This document shows, one piece after another, positions 19,924 to 22,971 of a stretch of DNA of 64,000 nt. The DNA comes from Spirochaetia bacterium (GTDB taxonomy: Bacteria; Spirochaetota; Spirochaetia; SZUA-6; Bin103). The position numbers and the translations under genes are program-made. The notes under the pieces are model-generated. The model worked only from the letters and a program-made list of their open reading frames with translations. It searched no databases and had not been told where the DNA came from. The stretch lies in contig CBDBOV010000003.1 in NCBI GenBank assembly GCA_965208575.1, positions 672,001 through 736,000 of the forward strand. The letters run 5' to 3'. Position 1 is the stretch's first letter; the number at the start of each line of letters is the position of its first letter.

Positions 19924-20901
19924 CTAGGGGCTCTGCGCGCCGACCGTTTCCACGTAGACGGCGTACAGCGACTGGCTGGCGGCCATGAACAGGCGGTTCT
20001 TCTTGGCGCCGCCGAAGCACAGGTTGGCGCACCGCTCCGGCAGGTGGATCTGGCCGATCAACTCGCCCTCCGGGGAAAAGCAGTGCACCCCGTTGATGCC
20101 CTCGCCGCCGGCGGCGCCCGCCCACACGTTGCCGTAGATGTCGACCCGCAGGCCGTCGGAGTTGCCCGGGCTCATGTCCGCGAACACCCGCTGACCGCGC
20201 GCCCGGTTGTCGGCCACGTCGTAGCGGTAGATCACGCGCGGGGTACCGGGATGGTGCGAGATGCCGGTCTCCACCACGTACAGCCCGGCGAAGTCGGGCG
20301 TGAAGCAAATCCCGTTCGGCATCACCATGTCGTCGACCGCCACCGTGACCGCGCCGGTGGCCGGGTCGAGGCGGTACACGCGCGCCGGCAGCTCGTGCTC
20401 GGCCCAGTGGCCCTCGTACTGGTACAGGGTGCCGTAGCCCGGGTCGGTGAACCAGATCGAGCCGTCCGGGTGGGTGCACAGGTCGTTGGGCCCGTTCAGC
20501 GGCTTGCCGTCGAAGCGGTCGATCAGCACGGTGATCGAGCCGTCGTGCTCGGTGCGGGTGACGCGGCGGCTGTCGTGCTCGCAGGAAATCAGCCGCCCCT
20601 GCGCGTCGCGGAAGTTGCCGTTGGTGTTGTTGGAGGGCCGGCGGAACTCGCTGACCCGGCCGCCGGCGGCGTCGTAGCGCAGGATGCGGTTGTTGGGAAT
20701 GTCGCTGAACAGCAGGCAGTCGTGGTCGCCGAACCACACCGGGCCCTCTGCCCAGCGCGCGCCGGTGTACAGCCGCTCCACGGCCGCGTTGCCGATCCGC
20801 ATCCTTGCGAAGCGCGGGTCGTGCACCTGCACGGCGGGATCGGGATAGGCGACGATGCCGTTCCAGTCGCGTCCGGCGATCGGCGATTCAGTGGTGGCCA
20901 T
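19924..20901 (-). CDS. SMP-30/gluconolactonase family protein
   Basis: WAEGPVW, FSDIPNNR, NGPNDL, FTDPGYG, PNGICF, DGLRVD. Confidence 0.92.
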   Translation of the reverse strand: MATTESPIAGRDWNGIVAYPDPAVQVHDPRFARMRIGNAAVERLYTGARWAEGPVWFGDHDCLLFSDIPNNRILRYDAAGGRVSEFRRPSNNTNGNFRDAQGRLISCEHDSRRVTRTEHDGSITVLIDRFDGKPLNGPNDLCTHPDGSIWFTDPGYGTLYQYEGHWAEHELPARVYRLDPATGAVTVAVDDMVMPNGICFTPDFAGLYVVETGISHHPGTPRVIYRYDVADNRARGQRVFADMSPGNSDGLRVDIYGNVWAGAAGGEGINGVHCFSPEGELIGQIHLPERCANLCFGGAKKNRLFMAASQSLYAVYVETVGAQSP

Positions 20902-20958
20902 GGCCGCAATATAGCACAGGCGACCGGCCGCGACGGCGGGTTCGGGGCGCTAACGGCG

Positions 20959-21510
20959 CTAACCGCTCAGCTTCTTGAGCTGCTCGATGATCTCGGACGT
21001 CTTCGGGCGGTCGCTGGTGCGCCGGCTGACGTGCGACCAGCGCACGATGCCGTCGGTGTCGATGATGAACGTGGCGGGGGCGGCCAGGCTGTCCCCGCGC
21101 AGGTTGTATACCCCGTAGGCGTCCACCACATCGGTGTCGCTGTTGTACAGCACCGGGAATTCGATGCCAACCTTGCCGACGATCGACTGCGCCCCCGACA
21201 GGTCGTCGGTGCTGATCGCCAGCACCTCTGCTCCCAGCTCGGTGATTTCCTCGTAGTGATTACTCAGCTCGACGAGCTGACGCCGGCAGTACGTTCACCA
21301 GAACGCGCGGTAGAACACCAGCACCACCGCGTGCTCTTCCAGGGTGGCGCTCAGGGAATGGGTGTCGCCGGCCGCGCTCGGCAGCTCGAAGTCGGGCGCG
21401 GCCGTTCCTGTCTCCGGGGTGGTCGCCATCAGTGTCGCAGGAATCACGCTTGCAAGCGCCAGCGCAACGAGTGATCGCCGCCACGCCGCGCGGCTGCCAG
21501 AGTTCCCCAT
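20959..21510 (-). CDS. Peroxiredoxin-like (AhpC/TSA, thioredoxin fold) selenoprotein with UxxC motif and N-terminal signal peptide
   Basis: Two in-frame ORF-track halves joined by a single TGA at 21297-21295: APDFELP...VVLVFYRAFW-U-TYC-RRQL...AISTD...FPVLYN...PATFIIDTDGIVRW. Confidence 0.85.
21264..21280 (-). promoter_or_regulatory. Candidate bacterial SECIS hairpin
   Basis: On the coding strand, TCAGCTC-GTC-GAGCTGA: 7-bp stem, with a G-first apical loop 21 nt after the UGA. Confidence 0.65.
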
Positions 21511-21924
21511 GCGCCAACTATACCCGCCCGCCAGCGCGCCGGCAAGGGAACCAGACGGGCCAAGCGGGGACCATCGGCGAATGCTCGGCGGACGCTCGAG
21601 CGCTCGGTCCACCGTACGGCTCGGAGCCTGCACCGATGCGTTGTTCCGCTGACCGCCGAGCTGCAGCCATCGCTCGCCGGCAAGCATACACTCGGAACGA
21701 GGTCTCGTGGAGCAAGACAACGAGCGCACGCGAGCGCCAACGGTGCCGCTCAAGCGTATCAAGATCGACCTCGCGCGGCCGATGAGGCGCAGCGAAGAAC
21801 AACCGGACCGCAGTGCCTGCGGTCGCAGCGACGGTGCGAAATTGTCACGCAATCCGCGCGATCCGGCGCGATCCCATACCCCGCTACTCGTGGTTCGGGG
21901 ATGTGGTACCATGCCGCAACCGAC

Positions 21925-22971
21925 ATGCCTACCTTCACTCCCGATCAACTCACCTCCCACGCGCAGCGTCTGCTTGGCGCGGCGGGTCTCGCTGACGACG
22001 AAGCCCGGCACATCGCCGGATCGCTGGTTCTGTCCAACTTGATGGGCCATGACTCCCACGGCGTCACGCGCCTGCCCCAATACCTGGGCGTCCTGGAACA
22101 AGGCGGTTTCGTGCCGGGCGTCACCATCGAGGTGGTGCGCGAAGCTCCGGCCTCAGCCGTGGTCGACGGCAAGTGGGGCTTCGGCCAGACGGTCGCCAGG
22201 CAGGCGATGGCGCTGGCCATCGAAAAGGCGAGGCAGACCTCGGTGGGGGTGGTGGAGGTGTTCAACTGCGGCCACATCGGCCGCCTCGGCGAGTACGTGG
22301 AGACGGCCGCGGCCACCGACATGATTGGCCTGGTGACCTGCAACAACCATGGCGGCGGGCTGCTGCAAGTGCCGTTCGGGGGTGCTCAGCCGCGCATGTC
22401 GCCCAATCCGATCTCGCTTGGCGTACCGACCGGCGGTGAGCTGCCGATCGTCGTCGACATGACCTCCAGCGTGGTGGCCGAGGGCAAGATCAAGATGAAG
22501 CGCAACCTCGGCGAGCCGATGCCGGACGGCTGGGCGCTCGACGCGGACGGACGCCCGATCACCGATCCGGAGCAGTTCTACGGCCCGCCGCGCGGCGCCA
22601 TCCTGCCGTTCGGCGGCGACAGCGCGCACAAGGGCTTCGCGCTCTCGATCCTGGTCGAAGTGCTGTCGGGCGCCCTCGGCGGTGCCGGCTACAGCCGCGA
22701 CGCCCAGACGCGCTGGGGCAATGGCGTGTTCATGATGGCGATCGACATCGCGGCGTTCATCGCCCCCGACGAGTTCAAGCGCGACACCGCGACGTTCGTG
22801 GACTGGCTGAAGAGTTCGGCGCTGATGGAGGGATTCGACGAGATCCTGCTGCCGGGCGAGCCGGAGACGCGCACCCGCCGGCAGCGGGAAGCCGACGGCG
22901 TGTACGTGGATGAACCCACCTGGCAGCAGATGACCGAGGCCGCCGCCAAGCTCGGCATCGAACTGGAGTAA
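21925..22971 (+). CDS. Ldh_2 family (malate/L-lactate/sulfolactate-type) oxidoreductase
   Basis: GHDSHG, VDGKWGFGQ, HIGRLGEY, PNPIS, VDMTSS.VAEGK, HKGFAL. Confidence 0.92.
   Translation: MPTFTPDQLTSHAQRLLGAAGLADDEARHIAGSLVLSNLMGHDSHGVTRLPQYLGVLEQGGFVPGVTIEVVREAPASAVVDGKWGFGQTVARQAMALAIEKARQTSVGVVEVFNCGHIGRLGEYVETAAATDMIGLVTCNNHGGGLLQVPFGGAQPRMSPNPISLGVPTGGELPIVVDMTSSVVAEGKIKMKRNLGEPMPDGWALDADGRPITDPEQFYGPPRGAILPFGGDSAHKGFALSILVEVLSGALGGAGYSRDAQTRWGNGVFMMAIDIAAFIAPDEFKRDTATFVDWLKSSALMEGFDEILLPGEPETRTRRQREADGVYVDEPTWQQMTEAAAKLGIELE

Follow-up and report, generated by a model that had tools for sequence, protein, structure and literature searches.

A conserved in-frame UGA in a peroxiredoxin-like gene of a Spirochaetia bacterium is very probably read as selenocysteine

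When a listing of open reading frames divides a thioredoxin-fold gene exactly at its redox motif, has the gene been broken or does the cell read the stop codon as an amino acid? This question is raised by positions 20959..21510 (minus strand) of a 64,000-nucleotide stretch of DNA, referred to here as the window, which covers positions 672,001 to 736,000 of contig CBDBOV010000003.1 in the assembly GCA_965208575.1 of a Spirochaetia bacterium (G000:C3:672001-736000 in our numbering, where G000 is the source genome). Translation with genetic code table 11 breaks the locus into two open reading frames, 21295..22101 and 20959..21225. If TGA is translated as selenocysteine (Sec, U), a single frame of 183 residues appears, with one in-frame TGA at codon 72 in the surrounding ...VVLVFYRAFW-U-TYC-RRQLVEL. 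The initial annotation of this DNA had proposed a hidden selenoprotein whose sole interruption is a TGA at the first cysteine position of a W-C-x-x-C motif and which gene callers split, and the translation bore out both statements. On Pfam profiles the 183-residue protein matched AhpC-TSA with 113.4 bits and Redoxin with 86.6 bits. We are confident that 20959..21510 is a real selenoprotein gene, and it is very likely to be one intact gene for an exported protein with a peroxiredoxin-type thioredoxin fold and the redox centre W-U-T-Y-C, in which UGA is read as Sec.

Conservation of the TGA was estimated by a six-frame search of the source genome and 60 relatives (expect value E ≤ 1e-10), which gave a match in 38 of the 61 genomes. 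Ten matches at 54% identity or more (54–99%) belong to the source genome and to nine of the ten other genomes of its genus; each contains exactly one TGA, and in 10 of 10 it stands directly after RAFW (RAFW*TYC, *THC, *VHC or *IHC). In the tenth congener, G008, which is 88% complete, only a weak paralog was registered. A metagenome scan returned 19 loci (L131-L149), and 15 of them (L131-L145, 43–86% identity, on contigs with a guanine plus cytosine (GC) content of 43–68%) are orthologs, all with TGA at the identical codon. The Sec codon is therefore found in 24 of 24 orthologs besides the source gene, and no TGC or TGT form of it was seen among genus and metagenome relatives of at least 43% identity. 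Cysteine, as part of a CxxC motif, was seen opposite the TGA only at 40% identity or less, in distant homologs such as P0009, P0021 and P0030; full-length public homologs at this distance carry either CxxC or the TxxC of peroxiredoxins, and two metagenome loci of about 30% identity, L146 and L148, have CxxC at the aligned motif. The check proposed by the initial annotation, an alignment of Cys-containing homologs at the position of the TGA, thus placed U72 opposite the first Cys of CxxC both in the distant homologs and in ResA. A genome without Sec machinery and close relatives with TGC or TGT had been named there as the findings that would speak against recoding; what was found instead is a complete sel cluster, described below, and TGA in all genus and metagenome orthologs.

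The same data bear on the explanation that a former CxxC redoxin gene acquired the TGA by nonsense mutation, or that the codon is an error of sequencing or assembly, and that fragments are made at most. It agrees with the splitting of the gene by table-11 calling, with the state of the nearest public proteins (P0003-P0006 and P0008), which are fragments without the region before the TGA, and with the failure to find sel genes in one of the congeners, G005. It is hard to reconcile with a TGA whose position does not vary in any of the 10 genus and 15 metagenome sequences, down to 43% identity, with the lack of any TGC or TGT in that range, and with a hairpin that is conserved and covarying. The orthologs align end to end with the 183-residue protein. 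The ratio of nonsynonymous to synonymous substitution rates (dN/dS, Nei-Gojobori, 36 genus pairs) had a median of 0.23 over the 35 codons before the TGA and of 0.33, with a maximum of 0.55, over the 108 codons after it. Since these values are well below 1 on both sides, both halves are under protein-level selection in one frame, and a decayed or misread gene can be regarded as a practically negligible explanation.

Some related sequences were noticed in the course of this comparison. Window positions 21252-21329, which cover FYRAFW and the hairpin, are the only part matched by several contigs of RNA and DNA runs, whose flanks diverge. At the nucleotide level this segment with the active site and the hairpin seems to be better conserved among relatives than any other part. 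Contigs from RNA libraries, 90–95% alike and originating from relatives, cross the TGA (record 2 of X21 at 21174-21340 and record 3 of X22 at 21249-21486) and show no difference at 21295-21297 among the matches listed; being contigs, with DNA carry-over possible, they were not counted as evidence of expression. Loci L147:332-706 and L149:65-511 of the metagenome scan represent another peroxiredoxin, with TGA at the position of the peroxidatic Cys (FFPKAFTGG*RKEL), and by this motif look like a TxxU Sec-peroxiredoxin. In genome G046, from another family of the same order, a peroxiredoxin-like (Prx-like) gene of 27% identity (L033:1501-1935) has TGA at the first motif position (FNRGFL*PFC), and this genome also carries a tRNA-Sec of 73 bits and, after it, a fragment of selA near the end of the sequence extracted there.

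The initial annotation implied that selA, selB, selC and selD should be present elsewhere in the genome. They were found in the source genome as one cluster, selC-selD-selA-selB, at C4:701525-705635, all above curated cut-offs. The tRNA-Sec (L001:1504-1598) scored 61.9 bits with a gathering score of 47, and ARAGORN calls it tRNA-SeC with the anticodon TCA. It is directly followed by selD (361 bits, G000:C4:701674-702594), which has one in-frame TGA of its own, so that selenophosphate synthetase is likewise a selenoprotein. The selA match reached 443 bits and that of selB 260 bits, the latter in an open reading frame of 652 residues with the SelB beta-barrel and winged-helix domains (PF09107). 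Among nine AhpC-TSA matches of the source genome a TGA was detected only in the gene at 20959..21510. A molybdopterin gene resembling formate dehydrogenase, again with a single in-frame TGA, lies at G000:C6:447629-448246 and is probably the third selenoprotein of this genome. The genus, then, keeps at least three UGA-containing genes: selD, the formate-dehydrogenase-like gene and the one studied here.

A complete Sec system also bears on the possibility that TGA is read as a standard amino acid, either by a reassigned code (Trp or Gly) or by near-cognate suppression. One public protein speaks for it: P0002, a JGI protein of 149 residues and 57% identity, has Trp at the Sec position (FYRAFWWPYC), which may correspond to a real TGG or to a TGA under code 4; possibly the annotator's choice of another code turned a TGA into Trp. 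Stop codon usage, however, points the other way. By a crude count, the 29 long frames of the window with high GC at third codon positions end in TGA 12 times, in TAA 10 times and in TAG 7 times, and 5 of the 23 ortholog frames that were read end in TGA as well. Because TGA terminates many coding frames of the window and several ortholog genes, the genetic code is standard. Besides, the codon falls on the nucleophilic Cys of CxxC, so that Trp or Gly here would leave no redox centre, and a hairpin of the bacterial type follows it. Incorporation of a standard amino acid is accordingly very improbable.

The distribution of the gene was compared with that of the machinery. At E ≤ 1e-30 selA was registered in 20 of the 61 genomes, among them nine of the ten congeners; in the sister genus none of 13 genomes has selA and none has an ortholog of the gene. 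No ortholog was found at E ≤ 1e-20 in 400 other genomes sampled from the phylum, so that the ortholog group is present in one genus only of 401 phylum genomes searched. Related DNA was also seen in runs labelled as sponge or marine metagenome.

Recoding of UGA in bacteria depends on a selenocysteine insertion sequence (SECIS) in the message, and the initial annotation had described a 7-bp hairpin with a G-first loop 21 nt after the TGA. The stem and the loop were reproduced exactly: the hairpin is UCAGCUC-GUC-GAGCUGA, with 7 base pairs and a 3-nt loop beginning with G. The distance given there is the one to the loop: 21 nt separate the TGA from the loop, and the stem starts already at 14 nt. 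The bacterial SECIS (bSECIS) model, in the form given in PMC13188914, has a loop of 3–9 nt, a stem of 4–16 bp, a G in the first two loop positions, 16–37 nt between UGA and loop and a minimum free energy of at most −7.5 kcal/mol. Our hairpin falls within every one of these limits, with a loop of 3 nt opened by G and then U, a stem of 7 bp, a spacing of 21 nt and −9.4 kcal/mol. The energy of the isolated hairpin was matched by 3 of 200 shuffles, and for its 61-nt context, where z was −1.81, 10 of 200 shuffles folded equally well. The folding energy of a single sequence in GC-rich DNA is, nevertheless, weak evidence for SECIS. An Rfam scan of 20900-21600 with E up to 10 reported no SECIS family; its four weak matches (miRNA, GA-cis, DnaX) were taken as chance.

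Among the orthologs of the genus the helix is kept, with one compensatory change (U-A to C-G in G005). The wider set, in which genus and metagenome orthologs were combined, contains 25 sequences, 22 of them distinct. In the 22 distinct sequences 86.4% of cells are paired versus 77.2 ± 1.7 in shuffles, 22 cells are changed on both sides versus 10.0 ± 2.0, and the covariation score is 0.272 versus 0.133; none of 500 shuffles reached any of the three values, which are to be read with the reservation that the sequences are related and that relatedness inflates shuffle tests. Sliding of the partner by 1–3 columns lowered the pairing to 13–39%, and RNAalifold recovered a 6-bp core unaided. One pair is especially informative. 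Columns 24 and 34 form G-C in 15 sequences, A-U in four and G-U in three and are never unpaired, and they change via synonymous codons of Gln (CAG/CAA) and Leu (CTG/TTG). As the variation is synonymous and pairing is kept, the constraint acts on RNA rather than on protein. The loop opens with G and then U in all 25 sequences, though the same two bases also open a conserved Val codon. Such comparative data, TGA and hairpin conserved together across orthologs, give strong support to the predicted recoding, and the bacterial Sec decoding proposed in the initial annotation is in line with the sel cluster, the conserved TGA, hairpin covariation and agreement with the bSECIS model.

What kind of redox protein is synthesized if UGA is decoded in this way? 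Its best solved relatives by sequence are the BCP/PrxQ peroxiredoxins (2cx3, 51 bits) and ResA (3c71, 46 bits). In the ResA alignment W-C-x-x-C corresponds to W-U-T-Y-C, and the Pro of 'PTTFLIN' to P145 of 'PATFIID'. A proline in cis conformation after W-C-x-x-C is typical for proteins of the ResA type, and P145 is invariant in the genus. The canonical active site of peroxiredoxins consists of P-x3-T/S-x2-C and a conserved Arg; the motif can be recognized both in the alignment with 2cx3 and in the consensus of A1. In the BCP alignment its Pro, Ser/Thr, peroxidatic Cys and Arg fall on R68, U72, C75 and P145, respectively. Since R68, U72 and P145 align there, only the Cys at the peroxidatic position is kept and the other three catalytic residues are replaced; the protein has instead a dithiol motif of the thioredoxin type, with Sec at its first and nucleophilic position. 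This Cys75 is invariant in the 29-sequence alignment A5. The AlphaFold model built with the 29-sequence alignment has a mean predicted local distance difference test (pLDDT) value of 85.7 and a predicted template modelling score (pTM) of 0.80; its helix spans residues 73-84, so that U72 immediately precedes the helix and C75 lies in the first turn. The top Foldseek matches, at E about 1e-14, are all peroxiredoxins, including Bcp4 (3hjp) and AhpE (1xvw), with TM-scores of 0.77–0.78 on the query and 0.89–0.91 on the target (0.90 on the target for AhpE). The initial designation 'peroxiredoxin-like' is consequently right for the fold and fails for the active site, from which Pro, Thr/Ser and Arg are lost. 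Among NCBIfam models the best match, SelL_rel_redox (NF040769), gave 77.1 bits with a cut-off of 120; WAxxUGC_long (NF041054) gave 29.1 with a cut-off of 300, and the ResA model 63 with a cut-off of 170.

These structural data leave two activities to be weighed. In the first, Sec is real and the protein is a selenol peroxidase, where Sec72 would reduce H2O2 or organic hydroperoxides via a selenenic acid and Cys75 would resolve it; a peroxiredoxin scaffold at the cell surface would thus carry out the chemistry of glutathione peroxidase. Sec is a good reductant of peroxides, the best structural matches (Bcp4 and AhpE) and the best sequence matches in PDB (BCP and PrxQ) are peroxiredoxins, and Cys75 stands at the position of the peroxidatic Cys. 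However, R68, U72 and P145 stand in the places of Pro, Thr/Ser and Arg, the residues that activate peroxide, and W-C-x-x-C with the following Pro is the thiol-disulfide oxidoreductase signature of ResA. We consider the peroxidase possible, though rather doubtful. Reduction of oxidised extracytoplasmic protein thiols (disulfides or sulfenates), by analogy with ResA and TlpA, is somewhat favoured as the function of the protein.

Several results weigh against the reading of the locus as a SECIS-dependent selenoprotein gene of this kind. In the 43-nt context the hairpin had z = −0.38 with 52 of 200 shuffles as good, and the minimum free energy chooses another fold. Covariation restricted to the genus, an underpowered comparison, did not exceed shuffles (236 of 500 reach the observed value), and in the wider set neither the pairs changed on both sides (4 of 8; 244 of 500 shuffles) nor the further pair types (6; 477 of 500) outnumbered those of shuffles. 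The hairpin encodes the conserved peptide RQLVEL, so that part of its conservation comes from the protein. As to the function, the top structural neighbours are peroxiredoxins, not ResA, and P145 is Gly or Ala in L138-L144, thus not kept throughout the family. No conserved redox partner gene adjoins the selenoprotein gene in the neighbourhoods of the genus and marine loci, and the only match in a DsbD/CcdA search of the source genome lies below the cut-off (23.1 versus 27.1 bits). The membrane protein behind this match, CcdA/DsbD-like, adjoins another AhpC-TSA match at C6:1368222-1369227 and is a candidate at best for the putative reductant.

The main item on this side is genome G005, a congener 90% complete in four contigs. 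It has a TGA ortholog (L029, G005:C4:1843817-1844323) with the compensated hairpin, but selA gave no match there, selD and selB gave none above the cut-off, and the one 'tRNA-Sec' match at threshold is a tRNA-Ser. Its sel cluster is either unassembled or lost. Synteny was checked via the Ada-like neighbour of the source cluster; even G009 lacks this arrangement of genes, and the check did not distinguish a gap from a loss. G005 using UGA without detectable selABCD is also part of a broader proposal, in which proteins with FYRA[FY]W-U-x-x-C make up a clade of their own. Its members would depend obligately on selenium, would work as redox enzymes at the cell surface, secreted or anchored by lipid, would have reached marine and host-associated bacteria by horizontal transfer, and would act on a substrate unlike those of peroxiredoxins and of ResA/TlpA. 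The proposal is allowed by the absence of a Cys form at 43% identity and above; we nevertheless find it unlikely.

Returning to thiol-disulfide exchange as the favoured function, one can assume the following sequence of events. UGA codon 72 would be decoded as selenocysteine with factors supplied by the selC-selD-selA-selB cluster, the hairpin 14 nt downstream recruiting, through its apical G-U loop, SelB that carries Sec-tRNA(Sec). On export the signal peptide would be cleaved, leaving a mature protein of about 154 residues. The selenolate of Sec72, located just before helix 73-84, may act as the attacking nucleophile, and Cys75, one turn later, may resolve the intermediate with formation of an intramolecular selenenylsulfide, which a membrane or periplasmic reductant would then reduce again. 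Coordinates of the relevant features are collected in Table 1.

Table 1. Features of the selenoprotein locus in the window, with the evidence on which each assignment is based
Feature	Position	Strand	Evidence and details
Whole coding sequence	20959..21510	minus	ATG 21510-21508, TAG 20961-20959; Pfam match, end-to-end ortholog alignment, dN/dS below 1 on both sides of TGA
Predicted Sec codon UGA (residue 72) at the first redox position of W-U-T-Y-C	21295..21297	minus	Conserved TGA; aligned with the first Cys of ResA
TGC codon, Cys75, second position of U-x-x-C, proposed resolving thiol	21286..21288	minus	Invariant alignment column
Predicted SECIS hairpin: 5' arm 21280-21274, loop GUC 21273-21271, 3' arm 21270-21264	21264..21280	minus	Folding and covariation
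Putative N-terminal export signal, residues 1-29	21424..21510	minus	Read by eye: RR n-region, hydrophobic core LVALALASVIPATL, L-M-A before the proposed cleavage
Promoter-like site TTGCCG-17 nt-TATAGT	21517..21545	minus	Ends 6 nt before ATG

Export is predicted from the N-terminus, MGNSGSRAAWRRSLVALALASVIPATLMA followed by TTPE, which by eye resembles a signal peptide. Inspected in the same way, the genus orthologs begin with a basic stretch, followed by some 16 hydrophobic residues as the core and, at −1, by a small residue (LMA|T, ALA|A, ALS|A, SLG|A). The upstream frames of 13 metagenome orthologs were also read by eye: in ten the hydrophobic segment ends in a lipobox-like Cys (LAAC, VIAC, ATGC) with a Pro/Thr/Ser-rich linker after it, and of the other three one is genus-like, one runs off the contig and one is unclear. 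Residues 1-30 of the model are disordered (pLDDT 45–55). Such N-terminal sequences suggest that the selenoprotein is probably exported by means of its N-terminal signal.

The promoter-like site in front of the gene is the only one in 20800-21700, where 0.1 are expected from shuffles. The same layout, with −35 TTGCC/TTGTC, −10 TA[TC]A[GC]T and 6–9 nt to the ATG, precedes all nine genus orthologs examined, and this conservation before the ATG supports 21510 as the start of the gene. So short a distance suggests that the mRNA may be leaderless. A downstream gene, similar to SMP-30/gluconolactonase, has a −10-like TATATT at window positions 20908-20913 (minus strand), 6 nt before its ATG at 20901, and leaderless transcripts may be common in the source organism.

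An SMP-30/gluconolactonase-like gene stands downstream in G000, G007, G001, G003 and G005. Upstream neighbours are BNR-repeat or Ldh_2 genes, and GFO/IDH/MocA genes flank three marine loci; no functional link was read from any of them. On one marine contig a second AhpC-TSA/Redoxin paralog, without TGA, lies directly after the selenoprotein gene (L138:1948-2538). An antisense open frame of 476 codons (window 20044-21474, plus strand) overlaps the gene and its neighbour; considered as a gene, it was taken as an artefact of GC-rich DNA.

For annotation these data imply a correction, as the closest relatives are public only as fragments or, in one case, with Trp at the Sec site, and the selenoproteome of the lineage is for this reason undercounted. 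The compact and clearly covarying SECIS may serve as a useful test case for models of bacterial SECIS elements. On the whole, the locus adds a well-supported, putatively exported UxxC selenoprotein and opens no new kind of system.

BCP/PrxQ and AhpE (PDB 2cx3, 3hjp and 1xvw) are the best matches in sequence and fold, and Cys75 aligns with their peroxidatic Cys; unlike them, the source protein lacks the catalytic Pro, Thr/Ser and Arg and has Sec at the position of Thr, not at that of the peroxidatic Cys. SelL_rel_redox and WAxxUGC_long belong to the same superfamily, but with scores below both cut-offs the protein is a member of neither. With ResA, TlpA and CcmG (PDB 3c71, 1st9) it shares the aligned redox motif and Pro, WCxxC with WUTYC and P145, as well as an N-terminal segment for export or anchoring, which here is putative. 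It differs from them by Sec in place of Cys, by its peroxiredoxin fold neighbours, by the low score with the ResA model and by the absence of an adjoining CcdA or cytochrome c maturation gene.

The closest counterpart is offered by the Prx-like thiol:disulfide oxidoreductase selenoproteins, which Table 1 of PMC13188914 defines by PF00578 and UxxC/UxxU and lists as 'predicted with high confidence', assigning TxxU to true Sec-peroxiredoxins. Prx-like selenoproteins were reported in 8 genomes in a 2006 survey (PMC1794560), and 'Prx-like 1' is represented by 225 sequences from the Global Ocean Sampling data in Table 2 of PMC2398784. Compared with the family by its published definition, the source ortholog group is Sec-only at 43% identity and above; the source protein has a putative export signal and, within the phylum sample, occurs in one genus only. 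Common to both are the PF00578 domain (here at 113.4 bits), the Sec-first U-x-x-C motif (here U-T-Y-C), an in-frame UGA followed by a bSECIS hairpin, and Cys homologs of the CxxC type. Judged from these sequence features, the gene at 20959..21510 fits well as a so far unannotated member of this known family.

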